This document shows, in pieces, positions 1-37,071 of a DNA stretch of 40,470 bases. The notes under the pieces are model-generated. The model did no database searches. It saw nothing but the letters and a program-made list of their open reading frames with translations, and was not told where the DNA came from. The position numbers were made by a program, and so were the translations under genes. Each line of letters starts with the position of its first letter. Position 1 is the stretch's first letter. The DNA lies in UHGV virus genome UHGV-0078430; one strand, given 5' to 3'. The stretch comes from a virus.

Positions 1-49
1 TTATAAGTTCATCTTTAAATGATAATCAATTGCATGGGAGTTTATCACC

Positions 50-1570
50 ATGAGGAGCGTAATTACATACTTGAGATTCTCATCAGCCATACAAGGCGCT
101 GAAGGTGCAGATTCAACCAGACGACAAAATGACCTGTTCAAGCAGTGGCTGAAGAAGAATAGCGATGCTCAAGTAGTAGCGTCTTTCAGTGATGAAGGTC
201 TATCCGGTTACAAAGGTAAGCATCTTACTGGTCAGTTTGGTGACATGTTAGCCCGTATTGAGTCTGGGGAGTTTCCAGAAGGTACGATTTTGCTTGTTGA
301 GAGTATCGACCGTATAGGCCGCTTAGAACACCTTGAAACAGAAGCCTTGATGAATCGCATCTTAGGCAACGGGTTAGAGATTCACACGCTACAAGATGGT
401 CTTATCTACACAAAGGATGCTTTAGCCGATGATTTAGGAATCTCAATCATCCAGCGTGTCAAAGCCTACATAGCGCATCAGGAGAGTAAGCAGAAGTCTT
501 TCCGTGTTAGCGAGAAGTGGAAACAACGTGCAAAACTTGCCCTTGCTGGTGAACAACGTTTAACAAAGATGGTTCCCGGATGGATTGACCCCGATACTCT
601 CAAACTCAATGAACACGCTGAGACTGTAAGACTGATTTTCAAGCTGCTGCTAAGTGGTGAAAGTCTGCATAACATTGCACGTCACCTTCAAAGCAACGGT
701 ATAAAGTCGTTTAGTCGCCGTAAAGATGCTAACGGGTTCAGTGTTCATTCTGTGCGTACTATCTTAAGGTCAGAGACAACGATAGGCACACTACCAGCAT
801 CACAACGTAATGACCGCCCCGCTATACCGAACTACTACGAAGCCGCCATAGACGCTGCAACGTTCAATAAAGCTCAAGAAATCCTCGATAAAAATCGTAA
901 AGGCCGTACACCTGCAAGTGATAACCCATTAACGATTAACATCTTCAAGGGATTATTCCGGTGTCAGTGTGGGGCTAGTGTCCATCCTACCGGAACAAAG
1001 AATAAGTATGCTGGGGTCTACAGGTGCAATAACCACTTAGACGGTCGCTGTGATGTTCCACCGCTGAAGCGTAAACCGTTTGATAAGTGGATGCTTGAAA
1101 ATTTTCTAGGAATGATTGACGTGGGGAATGATGGAGAAGCAGAGGGGAAGATTGCATCTCTACAGCATGAGGTTGAAATTGTCACAACCAGAATCAAGAA
1201 AGCTACCGCCCTACTTCTTGAGATGGATGATATTGATGAACTAAAAATTCAGATTAAGGAACTGAACCAGAGGCGTACAGAGCTACAGACCACGATTGAT
1301 AACATGAGGCGTAAGGCTTCACTCACTGATAAGGAACTACCCCAGCTTAAAGATATTGACCTGACAACTAAAGCGGGTCGTGTCGAGTGTCAGTTGATTT
1401 TGTCCAAACATCTAAAAGGGCTTACATTGGGTAAGGATTCGGTAATTGTAACGCTACAGAACGACACTGAAATCACCATACCTACAAACCCGTTACCGCT
1501 AAATGATGGAACATCAATATTTGAAATTGCTGAAAAAGAGCTACTAGAAATAGACGCTTATCAACTGTAA
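50..1570 (+). CDS. large serine recombinase (integrase/resolvase family)
   Basis: N-terminal YLRFSSAIQ catalytic-serine motif and ESIDRIGR motif typical of resolvase-type catalytic domain; 506 aa with Cys-rich zinc-ribbon-like block (CQCGAS...YRCNNHLDGRC) and coiled-coil C-terminus as in large serine recombinases. Confidence 0.85.
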   Translation: MRSVITYLRFSSAIQGAEGADSTRRQNDLFKQWLKKNSDAQVVASFSDEGLSGYKGKHLTGQFGDMLARIESGEFPEGTILLVESIDRIGRLEHLETEALMNRILGNGLEIHTLQDGLIYTKDALADDLGISIIQRVKAYIAHQESKQKSFRVSEKWKQRAKLALAGEQRLTKMVPGWIDPDTLKLNEHAETVRLIFKLLLSGESLHNIARHLQSNGIKSFSRRKDANGFSVHSVRTILRSETTIGTLPASQRNDRPAIPNYYEAAIDAATFNKAQEILDKNRKGRTPASDNPLTINIFKGLFRCQCGASVHPTGTKNKYAGVYRCNNHLDGRCDVPPLKRKPFDKWMLENFLGMIDVGNDGEAEGKIASLQHEVEIVTTRIKKATALLLEMDDIDELKIQIKELNQRRTELQTTIDNMRRKASLTDKELPQLKDIDLTTKAGRVECQLILSKHLKGLTLGKDSVIVTLQNDTEITIPTNPLPLNDGTSIFEIAEKELLEIDAYQL

Positions 1571-1575
1571 TTTTC

Positions 1576-1598
1576 AGGGGCTATGAAGCCCCTTTTTA
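1576..1598 (+). terminator. putative Rho-independent terminator after recombinase gene
   Basis: 7-bp stem aggggct/agcccct with 4-nt loop followed by ttttta. Confidence 0.45.
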
Positions 1599-1602
1599 TG
1601 TC

Positions 1603-2394
1603 TCAATAAGTGCCCTTCTTGTTCGGATTTACAGAAAACTTCCGTAAAGCATTACCCGACTTAAGCACCTTTGAAGCTTGCTCATTAGCTGAGGCTGTGA
1701 AGGTGCTCTCACCATTTTTAACACTAACGCTCTTAGAGCACGTTACACGGGCTTTTAGCGCTTCATCTGATAACTCACTTGCCGAATAGCTAAAAAGCTC
1801 TTTACAGGTCAGCATAGGGCTTCCAAGACTCGTTGTAGTGTTGCCAGTGTTCTTTTTACTGGTAGCACCACCATCATTCGTAGTCGCGGCTTTTCCAGTT
1901 GCAGCCGAGATATCAGTCTGCCCCACAATAGCTTTAAAGTTAATTTCCTGAAAAGTTAGCTGGATTCTTAGGCCATTTGAAATACCAACATCTTTAGAGG
2001 CTTTAAAGCTCGTGATAATGGAATCATCAATTTTAATTCCGTCTTTACAGATGACCGAAATAATCTGCTTCTGGTCACGCCAGTTTTCCAGAGTGTCGAT
2101 GAAGTTTTCTACCAGCTTATTATCTCTTGAGATAAGGATACTACCGGATTCACCAACCACAACCACACCACTAATAGTAATTGTTCTGGGTGAACGCATT
2201 ACATTATCTGTTACAGTCTGCCCTGATTGCATATTTTGAGTGGTCACCATCATAGGGCTGTCATATTCCATGTTTTCAGTTGCTGATAGTGACAAGAAAT
2301 TATCTGGTTGGCCTTGTAGATGAAAGTAAACGCCATCTTTACCAGTGTAACGAAGCTGATTAGTGTAAATCATTAAATTCTCCTTTGATTTCAA
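1603..2394 (-). CDS. hypothetical protein, possibly distal-tail (Dit)-like by position
   Basis: 263-aa ORF immediately downstream of tape-measure-like gene, Ser/Thr-rich C-terminal half; function inferred only from position. Confidence 0.4.
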
Positions 2395-2455
2395 AGGCTT
2401 AGTGTATTTTAATCATTTTTAACCAAGCCTTTGATATATAAGTGTTTTCTCTGCT

Positions 2456-2519
2456 AAGCGTGTTGTACGTAAATTCTATTTTTCAGTGTGGGTATTAGCT
2501 TTACAGATTTCACGTAGCA
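2456..2519 (-). promoter_or_regulatory. conserved upstream element, copy 1
   Basis: about 64 bp sharing blocks (tgctacgtgaaatct, atacccac, tttacgta, cacgctta on the minus strand) with a second copy at 4601-4663; lies upstream of ORF 1603-2394. Confidence 0.45.
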
Positions 2520-2530
2520 TTCGACTATTA

Positions 2531-4579
2531 TTAATCATCTTCTGGGAATGATGAACTTAATAGCGTAGCTTCTGCATATTGGTCGTAGATATTACTGCTA
2601 AAGGTCATAAAGCTGGTTTCATCTGGTTTAATGGCAACTTCACCACCAAGTGAAACTTTCACAGGCTCCTGAATACGTTTGCTCAAAGCACTAATTTCAT
2701 CTCTCAGGCTTTGGATATCCGTATTCGTTAATGCCGCATCTTGTCTCATGGTGATTAATTCTGGATGCTGGAAGTTAGCAAGATTCATAGCTGCACTACT
2801 AAACCAACCTTTAACATCGTCCATAGTGAACACTGGTTTAAGTCCAGACTCTTTAGCTAGCTCTGGTAATTTAGCTTGTGCTTCCATTCGTTCAGGTGTA
2901 GAAGCTAATCTCTCATAACCTGCATAGATAGCACTACCAGCTAATAACATATTCCCAAGATTAAACCTTGATGGTTTCCCGTTCTTTCTATTCACGTTAT
3001 CCGCTGTAGTATCAGCGACCTGACCTAATCTTGTGATAGCAGTCATAAGCCCGTAAATACTTCTGGTTACACCAACAACTTTATTCACAGCAATAACACC
3101 AGCCAAGACTTTTAAACTATTAATCAAGCCAGAACCTAAAGCATCAACTACTTTCTTTTGTTCATCGGTTAAACCACGGTAAGCTAATGTCACCTCATCA
3201 AAGAATGCTCTTACCCTGTAGCTGATATCAGTCAATGAATCCACACCACTTGACATAGAAGTCATGAGACTACCAAGAGATTCACCAAGACTTTTACCGC
3301 TTCCACCTAAACTATTTAAAAGATTGGTTAAGCTTCTTGTGAAATCTTGAAGACCATTTTCAGAACCTCTGAAGATACTATCAAGCGTGGTATTCCAAGA
3401 GTTTTTCAGGTTCCCTAGTTGTGCCTGTGTACTTTCTGAAATAGCTTTCCAGCCGCCTTTAGCGGTGATTTGTCTATTCAGTTCCTGAGTGACCTTCTGA
3501 AGAGTATCGGCAGATTTTAAAGCCCCCTTCTTCATGGCATCAAATAATTCCTGTTCAGTCTTTCCGGTTGCTTTAGCGAATACCTGAACCATACCAGGAA
3601 CAGCTTCAGCTAATTGCCCCTTAAGCTCTTCAGCCATAATCTGACCCTTACCAGCCATCTGTGATAATGCTGTCAGTGCTCGCTTAATCTCTTCTTCACT
3701 TCGACCCATTAAACGAGAATAGCCAATCATATTTCTAAAAAGTTCTTCAGAACCTTGAATACCCATAGATTCTTTAGCTGAAGCACCAAAACCAGCAAAC
3801 TGTGATTGCAGTTCAGCGATATCTAAACCCGTTGTTTGAGCTAATGACTTTGTGAAATCTTTTACTTGACCTGCATCTTTATCAAATACGAAATCAATAC
3901 TTCTTTCCGATGATGCACGTTGAAGGCCAACTTCCATTACTCGCTGATAAGCGGATAGTACAGCCTGAAAGCTGATAAATGCACCTGCTGCTCTAACCGC
4001 TGCTGAAGACAGGTTATCAAGGCTGCTAGCTGCTCTGTCACTATTAATGCTGGTGGATGTATGACCTCTGGCTTTAGCAATTGCTTCTCTGACTGAAGCG
4101 TTTAACTGAGCTAACTTCTCATTGAATTTTGAAGAATCCATTGACCCGGCTTTAGCAGATAGCCCGTAAAACTGACTCTTAATGTATTTCTCGACAATTG
4201 GGTTAAGGCCTTTTAGCTTGCTCATATTCGCTGAGTAAGCTGCTGTGATTGCTCTGTTTCCGCTAATTCGTGGCTGTCTTGGTTGTTTTGGAGGATTAAC
4301 AGTGTCATTAAATCTGGTGGTAAACTGGAAAGCTTTAGTATTTCTTGCTCTCTGTTCAATCTTGTCAAAGGCCTTATTAAACTTCCTTTCAAGTTGCCCT
4401 AAAGAACTTGTCAAATTACTATCAAGCTGTTTTGTATTAATCCTGAAACCTTTATTTAGGTTCTTTTCAATTCTTTGTGCTGACTGCAAAGCTGCCTTTT
4501 CAACTCTTTGCAGTCCCTTAATAACGTTCTCGCTGAAGCCTAGCTCAACGATAAAACTATCAACTTTAAATTGTGCCAT
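2531..4579 (-). CDS. phage tail tape-measure-like protein
   Basis: 682 aa, coiled-coil N-terminus, central region resembling tape-measure domain (GLDIAELQSQFAGFGASAKESMG ... ALSQMAGKGQIMAEELKGQLAEAVPG ... FAKATGKTEQELFDAMKKG), Gly/Ser-rich segment; assignment from recalled motif pattern. Confidence 0.6.
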   Translation of the reverse strand: MAQFKVDSFIVELGFSENVIKGLQRVEKAALQSAQRIEKNLNKGFRINTKQLDSNLTSSLGQLERKFNKAFDKIEQRARNTKAFQFTTRFNDTVNPPKQPRQPRISGNRAITAAYSANMSKLKGLNPIVEKYIKSQFYGLSAKAGSMDSSKFNEKLAQLNASVREAIAKARGHTSTSINSDRAASSLDNLSSAAVRAAGAFISFQAVLSAYQRVMEVGLQRASSERSIDFVFDKDAGQVKDFTKSLAQTTGLDIAELQSQFAGFGASAKESMGIQGSEELFRNMIGYSRLMGRSEEEIKRALTALSQMAGKGQIMAEELKGQLAEAVPGMVQVFAKATGKTEQELFDAMKKGALKSADTLQKVTQELNRQITAKGGWKAISESTQAQLGNLKNSWNTTLDSIFRGSENGLQDFTRSLTNLLNSLGGSGKSLGESLGSLMTSMSSGVDSLTDISYRVRAFFDEVTLAYRGLTDEQKKVVDALGSGLINSLKVLAGVIAVNKVVGVTRSIYGLMTAITRLGQVADTTADNVNRKNGKPSRFNLGNMLLAGSAIYAGYERLASTPERMEAQAKLPELAKESGLKPVFTMDDVKGWFSSAAMNLANFQHPELITMRQDAALTNTDIQSLRDEISALSKRIQEPVKVSLGGEVAIKPDETSFMTFSSNIYDQYAEATLLSSSFPEDD

Positions 4580-4600
4580 TGTTCATATTTCACCTCTGTT

Positions 4601-4663
4601 AAGCGTGAGCTACGTAAAAAATAATTTTTGGTGGGTATATCTGTTCAGGAGATTTCACGTAGC
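4601..4663 (-). promoter_or_regulatory. conserved upstream element, copy 2
   Basis: second copy of the 2456-2519 element, ends about 20 nt upstream of the tape-measure-like start codon; contains 7-bp inverted repeat gctacgt/acgtagc. Confidence 0.45.
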
Positions 4664-4789
4664 ACACATACAAAAAAGGGAGAAACTACCGAATAATATC
4701 GATAATCTCTCCCCGTGTTATAGATTCGATAGAACCTATCTCATACACCCAACCAATTCTATTAGATTCGATTAGAAGCTAATCTCAAA

Positions 4790-4999
4790 TTAATGCCTGA
4801 CAAGATAATGTAGTTCCGTTTCACCTATAATTTGAGCATCGGAAGGGATACGGTCGATACACCACTTTGGAATCTTGCGTGTTTTTGGTTTGCGTGAGGT
4901 GATAATTTGATGTTTGGTTTTAATTCTTAAGGCTGGCTTAGTTTGTAACTTTAAGTTTTCACAAACAGACCGGATAGTCTCTAAACGTTCTTCAAACAT
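4790..4999 (-). CDS. hypothetical small basic protein
   Basis: 69-aa ORF between two larger minus-strand genes; no recognisable motif. Confidence 0.3.
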   Translation of the reverse strand: MFEERLETIRSVCENLKLQTKPALRIKTKHQIITSRKPKTRKIPKWCIDRIPSDAQIIGETELHYLVRH

Positions 5000-5022
5000 T
5001 AATCACCTCTTTTAATTCATAA

Positions 5023-5733
5023 TTAAAGCACCTTTGAGTACTTCGTTGAAATCTTCGTTAACTGCTCAATATCGGCTTGCATAGCAATCTTCTTCTGCGT
5101 TTCATATCCACTAACAAGCTCTTTCATGCTATCAAGTTCTTTTCTAAGTTTTTGCTTTAACTTATCCAGTTTACCGGAATAATGCTTAGTCAAATTAGCT
5201 TCAGCTAACTGAAGAATCTCTTCGTCTGTCTTATCAGTCATCAGGATAAATTGACCAGAACCCCTTAATGCTTGTCTGACATCAATTAACCGGAACCCTT
5301 CAGGGATACTTTGAAGAACTTTAGGAACGTCTTCAATCGCTGTACCAAAACCATCATTAAAGTTTCCTTCATAATAGATAAACGGGTTTGACTTAATCTC
5401 GTAAGCAATATCATATTCTGAAGGTTTCGAGGTTTCTTCGAAGTTCTTAACAGCATCGTAAGCAATATCAAGTCGAATACGCTGTTCTTTTAGCCGTGGG
5501 TAATATTCACGCTCAAGCTCAAATAGTGCTTCAGTTTTGCAAACATCAGGCATCTCCTGAGGTTCAGGATACACAAAGATGGTTGTTTTTGGTGACATCT
5601 TTAGCGATTGCTCAAGCTTAATTCTTTCATCGTGTTCTTTACGCTGGATAGTGATAGCTGGATGTTCAGTCTGTGGTGACCAGTCCCCGAAGCTATCAAT
5701 CTTTCTGCCGTTAATAAATAAATCATTTGTCAT
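5023..5733 (-). CDS. hypothetical protein
   Basis: 236-aa ORF with Lys/Glu-rich coiled-coil-like C-terminus; no recognisable catalytic motif. Confidence 0.5.
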   Translation of the reverse strand: MTNDLFINGRKIDSFGDWSPQTEHPAITIQRKEHDERIKLEQSLKMSPKTTIFVYPEPQEMPDVCKTEALFELEREYYPRLKEQRIRLDIAYDAVKNFEETSKPSEYDIAYEIKSNPFIYYEGNFNDGFGTAIEDVPKVLQSIPEGFRLIDVRQALRGSGQFILMTDKTDEEILQLAEANLTKHYSGKLDKLKQKLRKELDSMKELVSGYETQKKIAMQADIEQLTKISTKYSKVL

Positions 5734-5940
5734 TATAACTTCCTCTAAGTGTGGTTATTTCTTAATAGAGCACCTTCAACGCCAATACACTTAGAAGATG
5801 ACTTAACGATTTATTAAAGATGCTCTATTAAGAAAAGCCCTAAACATAGGTTCATCCTTATCTGTGAAGGGCTTTGGAGTTTGCTTATAACGTTAACGGA
5901 GTTTCAGGAAAAACTTTCTTTAAAAGCTCTGTTTAAAAAC

Positions 5941-5973
5941 TCTTAAAGAAACGCCCTAACTCATGATTAGGGC
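5941..5973 (-). terminator. putative terminator between upstream 4-gene operon and downstream genes
   Basis: stem gccctaa/ttagggc with 7-nt loop; on the minus strand followed by gtttcttt. Confidence 0.35.
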
Positions 5974-6304
5974 AAAGCTGTAAGGGTTCAATAATGAATG
6001 ATTAAGCACTTTTTGATATATAGCCTATCTAGTGGGCTAAATAGGCCATGTAGCGAAAAGCATTGCACCTTTCAGAATGTTCGGTATAGAACATACCTCA
6101 CCAACTCAGAATATCCATCCATCCATCGGATTATTGAAAGAAAAATAAGAGAGAATTACTCTCCCATAATTAAAATTATGTCATGCTTAAGGTTATTTGT
6201 CAACAGCTTTTTAACAGATTGGTAACATTAATTCTTATTTACCGTGTTACCTACCCAGCAACCAACAAATAAACCCAAAGCTGTCCAAGCAATTATTAAG
6301 CCCA

Positions 6305-6649
6305 TTAATGCACCACCTTCGAATCCGTCACCAAAATATTGTCAGCGTACAAAATTGCTATAGCTGCCTTGAGATATCCTTCAGGGCTAACGCTGTATTT
6401 GTTCGTTTGCTCGATAACCAATCTTTTCATGTTGCTGTCTTTAATTGGTAGCATCATTCGAGGCTCGTTAAACTCCACCGACTGAATAAAGTCAGAGATG
6501 CTTTCCGCATTATCAGCCATTAACTCTAACAACTTATCAAAGTCAATGCTAACACCTACATCAGTGAAAGCCTGAATCATCATAGCGGTGTCGTTATCAA
6601 CCATAATTTGCATTGGGTAATTGTTCATTTTTAAATTCCTATAAAACAC
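6305..6649 (-). CDS. hypothetical protein
   Basis: 114-aa ORF, last gene of a co-directional 4-gene cluster; true start may be internal Met (MNNYPMQ). Confidence 0.45.
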   Translation of the reverse strand: MFYRNLKMNNYPMQIMVDNDTAMMIQAFTDVGVSIDFDKLLELMADNAESISDFIQSVEFNEPRMMLPIKDSNMKRLVIEQTNKYSVSPEGYLKAAIAILYADNILVTDSKVVH

Positions 6650-6765
6650 ATCTTAAATCTGCCAAAATAGCCATTCTGAGGCCAGTAACCATGCGGGTTA
6701 CAGAGGGAGTGAGACACCTTAGTAATAGGGTAGCTCATCTTTGAGTCTCACTCATTCTTACAGGC

Positions 6766-7152
6766 TTACACAGACGCTTTAATCTTGTAGTATTGACTGC
6801 GTGATAAACCGTATTTCTCAGAAATATAACTTTGTGATTGTCCTTTGGTGATTGCATCAATGATTAAATCTTTATCGTATCTTTTACCGTTGGCTTTGTG
6901 CTTGTCGCCACTTTTAATAGAGTTGAAATTCTCAATTAATTTAATGGCGTCTTTAAGGTCGTCTTCGTAAGCATAATCAAAACCCCTGATAAACTCGAAA
7001 TCACCATTATCTTTTTGTGCTTCAGTCCAGATATCAAATCTTGAGGCTAATTGCTGGTGGGTAAACTTGGGCTTATTGGTTTGTGTTACGTCTTTCCAGA
7101 CTTTACCGTCAAATCTTACCAAATGGTCACGATGTTTATAAAAGTCATACAT
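6766..7152 (-). CDS. hypothetical protein with C-terminal helix-turn-helix
   Basis: 128 aa; C-terminus ISEKYGLSRSQYYKIK resembles HTH of resolvase/terminase-small-subunit/transposase-type DNA-binding domains. Confidence 0.5.
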   Translation of the reverse strand: MYDFYKHRDHLVRFDGKVWKDVTQTNKPKFTHQQLASRFDIWTEAQKDNGDFEFIRGFDYAYEDDLKDAIKLIENFNSIKSGDKHKANGKRYDKDLIIDAITKGQSQSYISEKYGLSRSQYYKIKASV

Positions 7153-7430
7153 TAAACCTCCATCGCTAATTTGTGAATTTTAATGCTTAGTAACCTTGCT
7201 AAATCCAGTCCAAAAGCATTTAAAGATTTCAGATTATCAAGGTCGGCTTGCTCAATCCTGATATGGTGTCTTGCAGCCTCTAAGCGGCTATTAAGCAAAT
7301 CTTGTTCGTTAATATCACGGTTAATTGCAAGCTTCATCACTGCTGAGTGTGGCAGACCTGTAATGTTTTTGATTCGGTTCAGTTCATCAAAGGCTGTCTT
7401 TGTAACTCTGGTTAAAGTGTGTTTGCTCAT
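7152..7430 (-). CDS. hypothetical protein
   Basis: 92-aa ORF; start overlaps stop region of upstream gene and stop abuts next gene (translational coupling). Confidence 0.45.
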   Translation of the reverse strand: MSKHTLTRVTKTAFDELNRIKNITGLPHSAVMKLAINRDINEQDLLNSRLEAARHHIRIEQADLDNLKSLNAFGLDLARLLSIKIHKLAMEV

Positions 7431-7431
7431 T

Positions 7432-7989
7432 TTAAAATTCCTCTGTAACTAAATACGGGTCAAACTCGAAATCTGGTTGCTCGTTTTCCATTGGCTCAAT
7501 ATTTCCAACGGCAATATGATGCTCAACAACACCAATTAACTTTGCGCACATTACAGCAAGCAAAGCGCAATATTTATCGCTTGGTAATTCATGGCTAAGT
7601 CTGGTTGCTTGACGCTGAAGATGATTTGTCACGGTGGCTGAGTTAATTTCATCAAGACTTCGCAGTAAATAAAAAACCTTCTGGTTGTATTTCTGGTGAC
7701 CCTCGCTTCTGCAAAATCCAATAAAAATATCATCAAGCTTGCTCGGTAGTTGCGCGTAGCTGTCAAAGCTAGCCAGATAATTCTTGATGCTGTTCTTTGT
7801 TGTTTTGCGTGTTGGCATGTAACGGTTCCTCGGTGTAATTGCCCGAATTACTTCGTCAATGCCTTTGCGTTCTTTCTTGGTAAACTTGGGTAATTCGTGG
7901 CTGGTGGGGGAGTTTGTGTAAGCGTAGGAGTTGTGCTTGTTGCGTTCTCTTGATGCCTGAAGCATCGCTCTAAATTCTGCGTCTCTCAT
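7432..7989 (-). CDS. hypothetical protein
   Basis: 185-aa ORF, first gene of the 4-gene cluster; divergent promoter region upstream (7990-8112). Confidence 0.5.
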   Translation of the reverse strand: MRDAEFRAMLQASRERNKHNSYAYTNSPTSHELPKFTKKERKGIDEVIRAITPRNRYMPTRKTTKNSIKNYLASFDSYAQLPSKLDDIFIGFCRSEGHQKYNQKVFYLLRSLDEINSATVTNHLQRQATRLSHELPSDKYCALLAVMCAKLIGVVEHHIAVGNIEPMENEQPDFEFDPYLVTEEF

Positions 7990-8076
7990 TCATATTCTGA
8001 CCCTCATAAGATGTTATTATTCTGTTAACTTATATAGACAATACTAGCATTTTCAAAGACTAATGTCAAGCATTTT

Positions 8077-8106
8077 TTAACATTTTATTAACATCTGTGG
8101 TATAAT
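8077..8106 (+). promoter_or_regulatory. putative sigma70 promoter with extended -10
   Basis: TGgTATAAT at 8098-8106 with ttaaca -35-like hexamer about 17-18 bp upstream. Confidence 0.4.
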
Positions 8107-8286
8107 GGTTCTATGGGGAGAGTAAAATATAAAGGCGTGGCTATGATTTGGTCACATGGTTATTGCATTGCACACAGACCTCTTCAATCGCTCTGTAACG
8201 AGTTAAACAGCCTCTTAAGGTCAACTATAAGGTCAGGTACTTTTTTGTGTCAGAATGCGATTGAGAGCGTCTTACAAGGAAAACTA

Positions 8287-8463
8287 ATGGTAAATCTCCC
8301 TCCTGAGCTGGGGTCACCTGATGTGTGGGCTGGTGGAGGTGTGGGTCTGTTCGCAGGTCTGTTACTTCGCTACGTCCTCGTCAGGGTGCTTGTTGTCTTT
8401 AGACTGTTCGGTCGTACATGGACGCTTGACCTTAAGGATAACAACCACACAGACCCCCGTTAA
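8287..8463 (+). CDS. small hydrophobic (single-pass membrane-like) protein
   Basis: 58-aa ORF (MVNLPPELGSPDVWAGGGVGLFAGLLLRYVLVRVLVVF...) preceded by AAGGA RBS; sits in a locally GC-rich patch inside the AT-rich island, downstream of a strong promoter; both overlapping frames are open so coding status is uncertain. Confidence 0.3.
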   Translation: MVNLPPELGSPDVWAGGGVGLFAGLLLRYVLVRVLVVFRLFGRTWTLDLKDNNHTDPR

Positions 8464-8476
8464 ACTCCCTTCAAAA

Positions 8477-8515
8477 CCCCCTGTACGAGATGGTATAGGG
8501 GTATCTTTAGCATTT
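8477..8515 (+). terminator. weak terminator-like hairpin
   Basis: cccct/agggg stem with 14-nt loop followed by T-rich tatctttagcatttt. Confidence 0.25.
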
Positions 8516-8583
8516 TGTGCTATCTATTAAAAAACAGCTTGACATAACCGGAAAGCTGTATCTATCAAGTATTCACCTCTCTG

Positions 8584-8755
8584 ACAGTAATTGCTAAAAG
8601 TTCTTATTTTTCAATAAGTTGTAATTAGCCATATATAGAGAACTGACAAGCCTCTTCACAGTTAACTCTGAAACCTTAACAGTAAATTCTAAAAGTTCTT
8701 ATTTTTCAATGAGTTGTAATTAGCCAATATAAAGGACTGACAAGACCCTTCACAG
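8584..8755. repeat. tandem direct repeat, 2 copies of about 78 bp at 95-bp period
   Basis: 8584-8661 and 8679-8755 align along their length (acagtaa.t.ctaaaagttcttatttttcaat.agttgtaattagcca...gactgacaag.c.cttcacag). Confidence 0.7.
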
Positions 8756-8783
8756 AGAACTTCCTGGACTCACTAAGATACAA

Positions 8784-8990
8784 GGCGATAACCCCAGAAA
8801 GGGAGAGCCACCTTCTTAACCGACTTCTTAAACAATCTTTACAGACCCCGTTCACCAGTCTCAATATTTTTATTTCTCGCTCTTCGTTTGTTGCTCGTTT
8901 CTATTATTGAGGGGGTTTGAAAAACCTCTGTAAAATAACCCTTCCAGTAAAAAGCGAATAACCCCAGACAGGGGAAATCGCCTCTTTAAC
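8784..8990. repeat. two copies of about 36-bp element
   Basis: gcgataaccccagaaagggagagccaccttcttaac (8784-8820) and gcgaataaccccagacaggggaaatcgcctctttaac (8954-8990). Confidence 0.4.
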
Positions 8991-9021
8991 ATTCTCGTAA
9001 TCAGTGCTCTATATGAGAATT

Positions 9022-9684
9022 TTAGCCCAACCTTTGAGCAATCCTGTATGACGTGCTCAGAGGCATTCTGAGAGCATCTGCAATGCACTTAATGGGTTTG
9101 CCTTGCCTGTATAGTTTTATGAAGCTGTCGAGCGTCTCAGGTGGGTAAATGGTGGGTCTTCCTCTTAAGCCTCCTCTGTTAATGATGGTTAACGGTAATA
9201 GCGTGTCAGCACAGCAAACCATCTGCGTAATTTCATGCTTACGTGGTTCTTTTTTAAAAACAACGACTGCACTTGGAAACGGTGAACGAATAACAAGCCT
9301 GTTATGGCCTGCTGGTGGAAGGTATTTAACTGCACGATGAAGAATACGGATTTCATGGCAAAGCGGGTTTGTGAAGATGTGCTTAAGCCAGTATATGGTT
9401 TGGGGTCGGTACGGTATCAGGAATACCGCTAAATCTGCTTCAGACGCTTTTACGAGGAATGTTTTAGTGTCGCTGTATGGTGGGTTACAGAATACCTTTT
9501 CACCAACCCATGACTGATTGTGGATATCATCGGTGAACCGTGGCAACAATGCGTCATGCTCAGTTGCAGCACCATCCAGACTGAAACTAAACTCACGGTG
9601 TAAGTTCTTGAATAATAAAAATGGAGTTCTCCAGTAATCAGAACCCCCATGATGTTTCCCGATTAAAATACACTCAATTGACAT
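9022..9684 (-). CDS. phage-type DNA N6-adenine methyltransferase (Dam family) with C-terminal HTH
   Basis: FCNPPYSD catalytic motif, DGAATEHDALLPRF upstream motif typical of phage Dam-like MTases; C-terminal HTH-like tail (LSTSYRIAQRLG). Confidence 0.8.
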   Translation of the reverse strand: MSIECILIGKHHGGSDYWRTPFLLFKNLHREFSFSLDGAATEHDALLPRFTDDIHNQSWVGEKVFCNPPYSDTKTFLVKASEADLAVFLIPYRPQTIYWLKHIFTNPLCHEIRILHRAVKYLPPAGHNRLVIRSPFPSAVVVFKKEPRKHEITQMVCCADTLLPLTIINRGGLRGRPTIYPPETLDSFIKLYRQGKPIKCIADALRMPLSTSYRIAQRLG

Positions 9685-10001
9685 AAGAAATAAAAATTTT
9701 TATTGCAATCACTCTTGACAAGGTTTACTCTCTTTTAAGAGATACTTAACAGGCTTTCTAAACGGATATCCTTTCTGGGATATCTATCTCTTATCTTAAA
9801 AGTCTTTATAGATACTTTAAAGATATCTGTATTAAATCTGTACAGTAACTTTTCAGACTCTGAAAATTTTTATAAAATCGTAATAGCCCCTCTTCAAATT
9901 CCCCTTCTAAAAATCTTCGAAAATATCTATCACAGGTCTATACCTGCTAAGTACCCGCCACACCAGCTATGTGACCCCCTTTGCAGAATTTTAAAATATC
10001 T

Positions 10002-10766
10002 ATGAGGTTTATTCGATAGAGGTTGGTACAAGCCCAACTAACCGAATCAACTATTGACTTTCTTCATAGTATCTGTTAACTCCACCTCAAGAAACCTTCA
10101 TCACACTTCAAAGCATCTATCAAGAAGATTTAACCTATCAATAGCTGTAACATTTTATAGTTCTGTGAAGTCCTATCCAGTTTTCTCTGTAACAGACACA
10201 AACTTCTGTGACCTTATGTATCAATGACTTACAAGACATGCTCTCAAGGTGCTGTATAGCCTCTTATCAGCCAATACACAAAACCCTTATAAATCAGTAC
10301 TGATACATATACAGTGTGTTTTTAACATAATAGCTGTTTTACGCACTAATCGTGTTCTACATGAAATCTGTATAGATATTAAGGTGTCTGTAAGTGATTT
10401 TTTAAGAGGAACTACGAAGGAACTATGAGGTTGATTCCTAGAACTAACCGAATCAACTATAACCATCACCTCCTAACTTTCACATAGCTGATTGTTATCT
10501 CTTGCAACTGTAACGTATGGTGACCAAACATCTATATATCGTTATATAGCCCTGTATATAGCACTTTTCTAGGAGTCTGGAGAGGGACGACTAACACGAT
10601 ACAGTTTACCCTGAAAAGAGACTTCACAGATTCTTTATATATTTCAATAAGTTAGGGTAAAAAGAGACTATGCTGATACTGCATAGAATCTGTGTAAAAC
10701 TGCTTAGATACTTGGGAAAATGCCTTTAAATTGCATAGTCATAGGGGTTGGAACAAGCCCAACTAC
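10002..10766. repeat. family of three related 25-55-bp elements in an ORF-poor region
   Basis: 10002-10056 atgaggtttattcgatagaggttggtacaagcccaactaaccgaatcaactat; 10424-10460 atgaggttgattcctagaactaaccgaatcaactat; 10741-10766 ataggggttggaacaagcccaacta; core gttgg-N7-ccaac dyad. Confidence 0.5.
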
Positions 10767-11054
10767 ACCTGATATTGTCCTGTAATTAACAGGTCTCTTA
10801 GAAAACCGAATAGACTTCATTCAAGGGTCATTGAAGTCATAATCATTTCAGTAGAAAAACCAGGTCTCGATTTTAAATGCAAATAGCAATCATATTCAAT
10901 AAGGCAAGACGATCAGGATCAGTGAAAATGTCATTTTTGGCGTAATTACCCTTACTTTATGCATGGCCTTAACAAAGACATCATCTTTCCGTTGCAGATC
11001 TTCGCCCTTTCAAATAACGTACTTTACAACTTTCCCGAACAAGGAGTTGTGCCC

Positions 11055-11351
11055 GTGTTGTATGTTATTTACGCTCAAGACAAAGCTGATAGCCTCGAAA
11101 AACGCCTTTCCGTTCGTCCGGCACATTTAGCACGTTTACAGTTACTGCATGATGAAGGTCGTTTGTTGACAGCTGGTCCAATGCCAGCGGTAGACAGTAA
11201 CGATCCAGGGGCTGCGGGATTTACTGGCTCAACCGTTATTGCTGAATTTGAATCGCTGGAAGCAGCTCAGGCCTGGGCCGATGCTGACCCGTACGTAGCG
11301 GCAGGAGTCTATGAACACGTTTCAGTGAAACCATTTAAGAAAGTGTTCTAA
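11055..11351 (+). CDS. yciI: YciI-like protein
   Basis: 98-aa product from GTG start with AAGGAG RBS 8 nt upstream; sequence (RPAHLARLQ...GRLLTAGP...ADPYV..GVYE) matches my recollection of enterobacterial YciI family; the longer ORF from 10959 is probably not the real start. Confidence 0.75.
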
Positions 11352-36996: not shown

Positions 36997-37071
36997 TGGC
37001 GGGACAGGAAGGATTCGAACCTTCGACCAATCGGTTAACAGCCGATCTCACAACCTCTGTGCTTCTGACCC
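36997..37071 (-). tRNA. tRNA-Asn-like (anticodon GUU), possibly phage-borne or degenerate
   Basis: manual cloverleaf: acceptor GGGTCAG/CTGTCCC (one T-T mismatch), D-arm with GG, anticodon stem ATCGG/CCGAT with loop CTGTTAA, T-arm GAAGG-TTCGAAT-CCTTC, encoded CCA. Confidence 0.45.

Follow-up and report, generated by a model that had tools for sequence, protein, structure and literature searches.

A conserved gene for a 58-residue membrane protein in an enterobacterial island, with a possible role in phage interference

Small membrane proteins encoded on mobile elements are often missed, yet they often decide the outcome of phage infection. Among the described systems closest to the locus treated here are the morons as defined by Juhala and Hendrix, exemplified by the superinfection exclusion protein gp15 of phage HK97, which acts through the tape-measure protein, the small membrane peptides of type I toxin systems, and LidI of the PLE satellites of Vibrio cholerae, a small membrane protein that collapses lysis inhibition and accelerates lysis. 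The present locus lies in the virus genome UHGV-0078430, a stretch of 40,470 nt that was analysed as a whole and is referred to below as the window, and whose positions 1-10900 represent the island portion. It holds a gene for a protein of 58 amino acids (aa) and appears to have the parts of an autonomous 'moron'-type expression cassette, since it has its own promoter directly upstream, a factor-independent terminator-like hairpin of its own and a deviant base composition, and it is situated beside the divergent control region of the island. The promoter is conserved, the reading frame is a coding one and under purifying selection, the motifs of the product are maintained and the genomic context is constant.

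The comparisons rest on homologues drawn from E. coli genomes, metagenomes and viral contigs and reduced to 59 non-redundant regions spanning -260 to +330 around the start codon. The promoter of the small gene, P_R (8077..8106, plus strand), combines the -35 box TTAACA (8077-8082), an 18-nt spacer and the extended -10 element TGgTATAAT (8098-8106), in which the hexamer TATAAT (8101-8106) is perfect and the TG extension occupies 8098-8099, and in a promoter scan it matches the sigma-70 consensus at 11 of 12 positions. Matches of at least 11/12 occur twice in the 40-kb window, both times with a TGn extension, and composition-preserving shuffles lead one to expect about 0.02 such extended sites per window. 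The arrangement is unchanged in 57 of the 59 loci and P_R is also carried by the Citrobacter and Kluyvera copies, which bears out the extended -10 promoter that a sequence-only reading of this DNA had noticed. At the other end of the unit a GC-rich hairpin of 9 bp resembling an intrinsic terminator (CCCCUGUAC-GAGAUG-GUAUAGGGG, 8478-8501, plus strand) is followed by a T-rich but interrupted tail (8502-8519), and the fold of 8464-8525, which comprises this hairpin and a second small one jointly, amounts to -20.6 kcal/mol. The terminator-like hairpin is retained in 49 of the 59 variants; in Citrobacter, Kluyvera and islands of the L071 type another stem-loop takes its place. Furthermore, the GC-rich patch of the sequence-only reading is real, as the open reading frame (ORF) has a GC content of 0.531 against 0.396 for the island and belongs to the top 0.3% of the 177-nt windows in 1-10900. 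A divergent leftward promoter, P_L (8041..8069, minus strand; TTGACA-17-TGnTAGTAT, 10/12 with TG in the promoter scan), stands back to back with P_R, the two -35 boxes being separated by 7 bp, and in its plus-strand form ATACTA-N17-TGTCAA it is recovered by a strict regular expression in 39 of the 59 variants. The interval 8027-8116 is one of the least variable stretches of the neighbourhood, and 8027-8716 is its best-conserved part, with a DNA conservation above that of the flanking protein genes.

The coding sequence (CDS; 8287..8463, plus strand) extends from the ATG at 8287 to the TAA at 8461-8463 and specifies the product MVNLPPELGSPDVWAGGGVGLFAGLLLRYVLVRVLVVFRLFGRTWTLDLKDNNHTDPR; the good ribosome binding site ascribed to it earlier corresponds to a Shine-Dalgarno (SD) sequence AAGGA (8276..8280, plus strand) located 6 nt ahead of the ATG. 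All 55 distinct CDSs are intact and measure 58, 61 or 62 codons, which means that every insertion or deletion is a multiple of three. Variable sites are distributed over codon positions 1, 2 and 3 as 27, 12 and 44, the pooled ratio of nonsynonymous to synonymous polymorphism (pN/pS) is 0.23 in the 58-aa frame while the other two give 0.67 and 8.2, and the amino acid replacements are conservative (V/I, L/F, R/K, T/S, D/E). In addition, an SD-like purine block is kept at constant distance across leader variants with otherwise differing surroundings, its equivalents being AGGAAA in short-leader E. coli, AGGAG or AAGAG in Citrobacter and GAAGG in Kluyvera, and the copies from the latter two genera preserve promoter, SD spacing and reading frame alike. 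Two further frames are indeed open, namely 8113-8463 (same frame, 116 aa) and 8321-8530 (+1), and neither is conserved. The in-frame open stretch upstream of the ATG varies between 0 and 195 nt among relatives, and the database proteins that include an upstream part are frame-shifted relative to one another. The +1 frame was rejected as a gene, its pN/pS being 0.67 and the database entries in that frame being frameshift fusions. Since the coding pattern fits only the 58-aa frame and the upstream frame is not conserved, the 58-aa ORF is taken to be the gene and the others to be by-products. On this comparative evidence it is almost certainly a real protein-coding gene, and the substitution pattern shows it to be under purifying selection in dozens of variants from several genera.

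The product is very probably a single helix inserted in the membrane. Its Kyte-Doolittle maximum over 19 residues is 2.18 (residues 19-37), and AlphaFold2, supplied with a 14-sequence alignment, predicts one helix over residues 11-51 with a mean confidence score (pLDDT) of 72, both in keeping with the one membrane helix and charged tail recognised earlier. The N-terminal tail (residues 1-13) is acidic with a net charge of -2, residues 28-46 contain four positive charges, and the hydrophobic helix bears R28, R33, R39 and R43. This charge distribution, together with the positive-inside rule, suggests an N-out/C-in orientation, in which the acidic N-terminus is predicted to be periplasmic and the Arg/Lys-rich stretch cytoplasmic. 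Residues G16, G20 and G24 form a glycine zipper, GxxxGxxxG, which is invariant or nearly so in the 55 CDSs and places the protein in the glycine-zipper motif class, a class that is not a homologous family. Such zippers mediate tight helix-helix packing and are found in many oligomeric channels. The register of the zipper is retained in Citrobacter (GGGIGLVIG) and Kluyvera (GCSIGLVVG) while neighbouring glycines change. The C-terminal tail reads FGRTWTLDLKD in the window and follows the conserved pattern FGRxWxxDLKD, and the zipper and the longer pattern LLRY..VR..VF.LFGR.W..DLKD are retained in Citrobacter and Kluyvera, whereas the N-terminal 13 residues diverge. That zipper and tail motif are kept while the N-terminus diverges suggests a specific interaction and not generic membrane damage.

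The sequence-only reading did not recognise the family, and neither do the libraries, the 58-aa protein having no family match in Pfam, PHROG, NCBIfam, PADLOC or PDB even at E<=10. The known type I toxin families (Hok/Gef, Ldr, TisB, ShoB, Ibs and others) give no match in Pfam or NCBIfam at E<=10, the known holin, superinfection-exclusion and defence families none in PHROG, Pfam or PADLOC, and tblastn of the protein finds nothing in 50,697 phage or 72,556 plasmid records. An exhaustive hidden Markov model (HMM) search of 1.84 billion cluster representatives returned 17 matches, nearly all of them members or fragments of the protein's own family, the two weakest having E > 1e-4 and an identity that was not inspected. 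An identical protein is on record as 'hypothetical protein' (UniProt A0A8H9XTN7) from at least 1000 contigs, among the complete E. coli genomes sampled NCBI PGAP annotates the gene in a minority of cases, and no paper mentioning the protein sequence or accession was found in the literature. The family is uncharacterised and narrow, confined to islands of Enterobacteriaceae, although the type of object, a cassette for an accessory small membrane protein in a phage-related island, is a familiar one.

The gene lies in an integrative island of about 10-12 kb that occurs in Escherichia, Shigella, Salmonella, Citrobacter and Kluyvera. One location of the complete unit of about 11 kb in E. coli is between tonB and yciI; other strains have it, with the same order, between wrbA and ymdF, while Citrobacter and Kluyvera display the same island layout with the small gene at the same position. 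The presence of the same unit at two attachment (att) sites and in other genera marks it as a mobile island, as opposed to a decayed prophage. Of 5426 complete E. coli genomes, 410 (about 7.5%) contain the small-gene region and 367 the adjacent gene for a 185-aa protein; a scan with the 185-aa protein of a collection holding one genome per species recovered only E. albertii.

The island carries a large serine recombinase gene (50-1570), followed by a gene for a Dit-like hub protein (1603-2394) and a tape-measure gene (2531-4579), and these tail genes are among its links to the FelixO1-like phages. The hub-like protein is 70% identical at the aa level to the product of the gene after the tape-measure gene in about 300 Felixounavirus genomes, the hub gene being 85% identical to its counterpart there at the DNA level over 460 nt. 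The best phage matches of the tape-measure protein are the same Felixounavirus phages, with 29-30% identity over the full length, and over their first 130 nt the tape-measure genes of island and phages share 73% identity. Furthermore, four short non-coding stretches of the island have counterparts in non-coding DNA of Escherichia phage bumzen: the island has two copies of the motif ATAACCCCAGAAAGGG (8788-8820 and 8958-8990) and bumzen one, at 78898, and 9745-9807, 9838-9878 and 9979-10000 match bumzen 87033-87093 and 79697-79860. These common stretches could be origin, packaging or promoter elements. Virulent FelixO1-like phages appear to have in this island a hitherto undescribed satellite or parasite, and no paper describing the island or a FelixO1-associated satellite was found in the literature. 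It may indeed be more notable than the small gene itself.

The sequence-only reading had likened the layout to that of small membrane toxins or phage exclusion peptides, functions that may be suggested for the protein. The role that we favour, with a probability of roughly 0.4, is interference with phages at the inner membrane, a functional step that we infer throughout. The strong extended -10 sigma-70 promoter would make an RNA of about 390 nt, consisting of a structured and modular leader, an accessible SD, the 58-codon ORF and the hairpin ending the transcript. Its product would be a bitopic inner-membrane protein packing its helices via GxxxGxxxG, with the Arg/Lys-rich amphipathic continuation and the FGRxWxxDLKD motif on the cytoplasmic face. 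Our best guess is that the protein is made, presumably constitutively, while the island sits in the chromosome, and that it is non-lethal; the consensus host promoter, the accessible SD and the never-interrupted ORF agree with synthesis of a tolerated protein in the resting state. Folding predictions leave the SD mostly free of pairing (P about 0.2-0.3) in most of the leader variants, and the mRNA accordingly looks translatable. The protein might then oligomerise or dock onto a membrane partner and thereby interfere with phage infection, either by exclusion of DNA entry or by manipulation of lysis timing, and its likely targets would be the FelixO1-like phages that share tail genes and non-coding sequences with the island. 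Several points weigh against such a role. As the searches found the protein similar to none of the known exclusion, defence, holin or toxin families, the proposed function rests on context and general features, and the island on its part is only presumed to be a satellite. P_R overlaps two direct repeats of TTAACA (8077-8082 and 8088-8093, plus strand, 11 bp apart) and could on that account be repressed by an island factor, in which case resting expression would be wrong. Finally, the significantly over-structured E. coli transcripts and the predicted pairing of their 5' tract, described next, resemble the fold-back control of type I toxin mRNAs without establishing it.

The main rival, possible though unlikely, is a membrane toxin of type I-like character that would depolarise or permeabilise the inner membrane in the service of island addiction or abortive infection. 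Translation of such a toxin would be held back by leader or fold-back structure, possibly also by an antisense RNA from 8253..8224, and the peptide would be released upon RNA processing or upon loss of the island or a regulator. The protein suits the role insofar as it is a small hydrophobic membrane peptide of 58 aa with one helix and a polar tail, and glycine zippers are typical of pore-forming helices. The strong promoter is moreover followed by a long leader, the predicted 5' untranslated region (UTR) measuring 174 nt (8113..8286, plus strand; start at about 8113, as placed by reference to the -10 box). Modular insertions and deletions make the interval between -10 box and ATG anything between 82 and 233 nt long among relatives. 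None of 100 dinucleotide shuffles folds as well as the sense transcript 8113-8510 (z -3.3, as against z -0.4 for the antisense strand), the structure thus being strand-specific, and eight E. coli-type variants range from z -1.9 to -4.1. In ten of ten full-length variants folded, a purine tract near the 5' end of the leader (GGGGAGAG, 8115-8122, plus strand) is predicted to pair either with codons 4-6 of a CU-rich tract within the CDS (codons 3-6, 8295-8304, plus strand) or with a CU-rich tract just past the stop codon (8465..8470, plus strand), the alternative partner in the minimum free energy fold of the full transcript. However, excess structure is not seen in the transcripts from Citrobacter and Kluyvera (z about 0), most variants have an SD predicted to be accessible, and the strong conservation of the cytoplasmic motif suggests a specific partner. 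The opposite-strand promoter-like site within the leader (CTGACA-18-TATAGT, 10/12, 8253..8224, minus strand), a weak candidate for an antisense start, sits in an optional imperfect palindrome of about 100 nt (8178..8278, plus strand; arms GACCTCTTCAATCGC at 8177-8191 and GCGATTGAGAGCGTC at 8257-8271) that is missing from the short-leader variants and whose 3' end contributes part of the SD. The site is absent wherever the palindrome is absent and partly conserved where it is present, a strict regular expression being positive in 14 of the 59 variants, and owing to its location it is not a conserved feature. The promoter scan of the window detected no other minus-strand promoter-like site across the CDS or 3' end, so the search for an antisense RNA proposed in the sequence-only reading ended with this lone candidate and no conserved antisense RNA gene. 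Likewise, Rfam yields no antitoxin small RNA (sRNA), its matches at E<=10 within 7900-9100 being chance ones to eukaryotic snoRNAs and lncRNAs, and Pfam no toxin family.

A more far-reaching proposal, which we regard as doubtful, is that the 58-aa protein is a membrane effector or self-immunity determinant of a new phage-satellite family of Enterobacteriaceae. This family would parasitise virulent FelixO1-like myophages and be the enterobacterial counterpart of the Vibrio PLE-ICP1 system; the island would supply its own tape-measure and hub proteins, and the peptide would block or re-route the tape-measure-dependent entry of DNA or reset lysis timing.

Improbable in our opinion is a lysis-timing or holin-like factor that would be used only during infection by a helper phage. 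By analogy with LidI of the PLE satellites, a protein that crosses the membrane once, has a glycine zipper and ends in a charged C-terminus could act in this manner, the island appears to be tied to a virulent myophage carrying rIIA/rIIB and a holin, and it has a large serine recombinase as the PLEs do. Nonetheless the promoter is of the host sigma-70 consensus type and unlike phage sequences, no endolysin was found in the island by profile searches, and the protein matches no holin family.

It is still less probable that the functional product is an RNA with a regulatory or immunity function, like P4 CI or P1 c4, the ORF being incidental or secondary, although a dual role of RNA and protein may be envisaged. 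The higher DNA conservation of 8027-8716 relative to the protein genes around it would agree with this, as would a leader stem-loop, GUGGCUA-UGAUU-UGGUCAC (8137..8155, plus strand), identified by folding and comparison. Its G.U pairs make the stem specific for the plus strand, and each of the 19 distinct hairpin variants recovered preserves the basal stem, the changes being one-sided (U.G to C-G and U.G to U-A) and, in a single case from Citrobacter, two-sided and compensatory (A-U to G-C). The codon-position pattern, the in-frame indels and the conservative replacements nevertheless reveal selection on the protein, and known RNA families were rejected as the identity of the segment, since Rfam gives no match at gathering score except for a tRNA elsewhere in the window. 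The suggestion that the overlapping frames indicate a structured RNA therefore fails as regards the main identity of the segment, pN/pS being as low as 0.23 only in the 58-aa frame; of the folding and covariance check proposed with it, the folding part stood, in that the leader hairpin is conserved and the sense transcript unusually structured, while no covariance model of Rfam matched. A last argument for an RNA comes from islands of the L007 type, which are otherwise about 98-99% identical to the window and in which the ~100-nt palindrome recurs in opposite orientation just upstream of a 109-aa gene (L007 1233-1359 versus window 8175-8278). Because of this orientation, rightward and leftward transcripts could pair there over about 100 nt with 86-90% identity. 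The palindrome is however optional, and antisense control through a second copy was rejected for the window, where the copy, found only in L007-type islands, is absent and its site is occupied by another module (a 128-aa helix-turn-helix (HTH) gene). Separately, the loop of the 8137-8155 hairpin holds nested palindromic inserts of about 15, 30 or 50 nt in some variants, which lengthen the stem-loop, and this apparent stepwise growth of a hairpin inside a 5' UTR is an unusual pattern.

The idea that the true product is a 116-aa protein made from a leaderless mRNA, for which it may be said that ATG 8113 coincides with the expected transcription start 7 nt past the -10 box and that both the window and several database entries keep the frame open to 8463, deserves next to no credence, as the upstream part is frame-shifted, interrupted or deleted in relatives with leaders of 82-233 nt and open stretches of 0-195 nt and the proposal is refuted by comparison.

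With regard to the neighbouring genes, P_L, a second strong promoter, drives a leftward operon of orphan genes of 185, 92, 128 and 114 aa, the first of which occupies 7989..7432 on the minus strand, running toward the 236-aa, tape-measure, hub and recombinase genes. A second near-consensus promoter on the minus strand (TTGACA-17-TGnCATAAT, 11/12, about 6170-6203) lies between the 114-aa and 236-aa genes and would give a leader of about 430 nt ahead of the 236-aa ORF, which starts at 5733 on the same strand. A structure-based identification of the 185-aa protein as a regulator was abandoned, the AlphaFold2 model being unusable (pLDDT 43), and PDB sequence searches with the 185-aa and 236-aa proteins gave nothing meaningful. 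On the other side of the small gene an inverted repeat, ACAGCTT-N12-AAGCTGT (8530-8556), is followed on the minus strand by T6 and looks like a terminator for leftward transcripts from the repeat and Dam side, which would insulate the small gene. A motif overlapping this repeat, CTTGACAnAnCCGGAAAG, is conserved out to Citrobacter and resembles the -35 region of P_L. Just 3' of the small gene, a repeat of about 95 bp is present in two tandem copies (8584-8761, families D1 and D2), and several E. coli genomes align there in two pieces and are about 95 bp shorter, consistent with one repeat copy; part of the repeat, ATATAGAGAACTGACAAG, bears a weak resemblance to the -10 region of P_L (8030-8064). 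These repeats may be iterons or operator sites. Farther on, a Dam-like methyltransferase fused to a resolvase-type HTH is encoded at 9022-9684 on the minus strand (Pfam Dam and HTH_7). The right end of the island is variable: elsewhere (L079-L085) a small serine recombinase of about 181-189 aa is found in either orientation past some 1.1-1.5 kb without called genes, and this end may represent an invertible segment. Beyond yciI (10959-11351) the window contains a second, far larger prophage-like block (11470-36934), whose ORFs are uniformly on the minus strand and have the sizes of head, tail and terminase genes, and which ends beside a tRNA-Asn gene (36997-37071), and the gene order past yciI is unlike that of the E. 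coli genomes inspected.

None of the variants examined has a disrupted copy of the small gene, which occupies the control hub of an island that about 7.5% of complete E. coli genomes carry. FelixO1-like phages are used in typing and biocontrol, and if it is true that the peptide excludes or sabotages them, it would be of relevance to phage therapy and biocontrol and would offer a simple handle on an unexplored satellite-phage system.

Comparing the locus with the systems mentioned at the outset, LidI is likewise a small membrane protein encoded by an island with a large serine recombinase and an apparent parasitism of a virulent myophage, but the promoter is here of the host type. Type I toxins such as Hok/Gef, TisB, Ldr, ZorO and TxpA resemble the 58-aa protein in size, in the single hydrophobic helix with its polar tail and in their residence on mobile elements, and furthermore in a long structured leader and in a 5' end that is predicted to base-pair either with the start region or with the 3' end. 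They differ from the present case in that no conserved antisense RNA gene and no family match are found here, and in that the SD is predicted to be accessible and the cytoplasmic motif is strongly conserved. The HK97 gp15 moron differs as well, since the small protein resembles neither gp15/YebO nor any Pfam or PHROG family in sequence and its carrier is an island of about 11 kb and not a complete prophage. Nonetheless, the two have in common an independent promoter-ORF-terminator unit placed between functional blocks of a mobile element, a deviant base composition and a small inner-membrane protein, in the present case a predicted one, and the island, too, contains a tape-measure gene.

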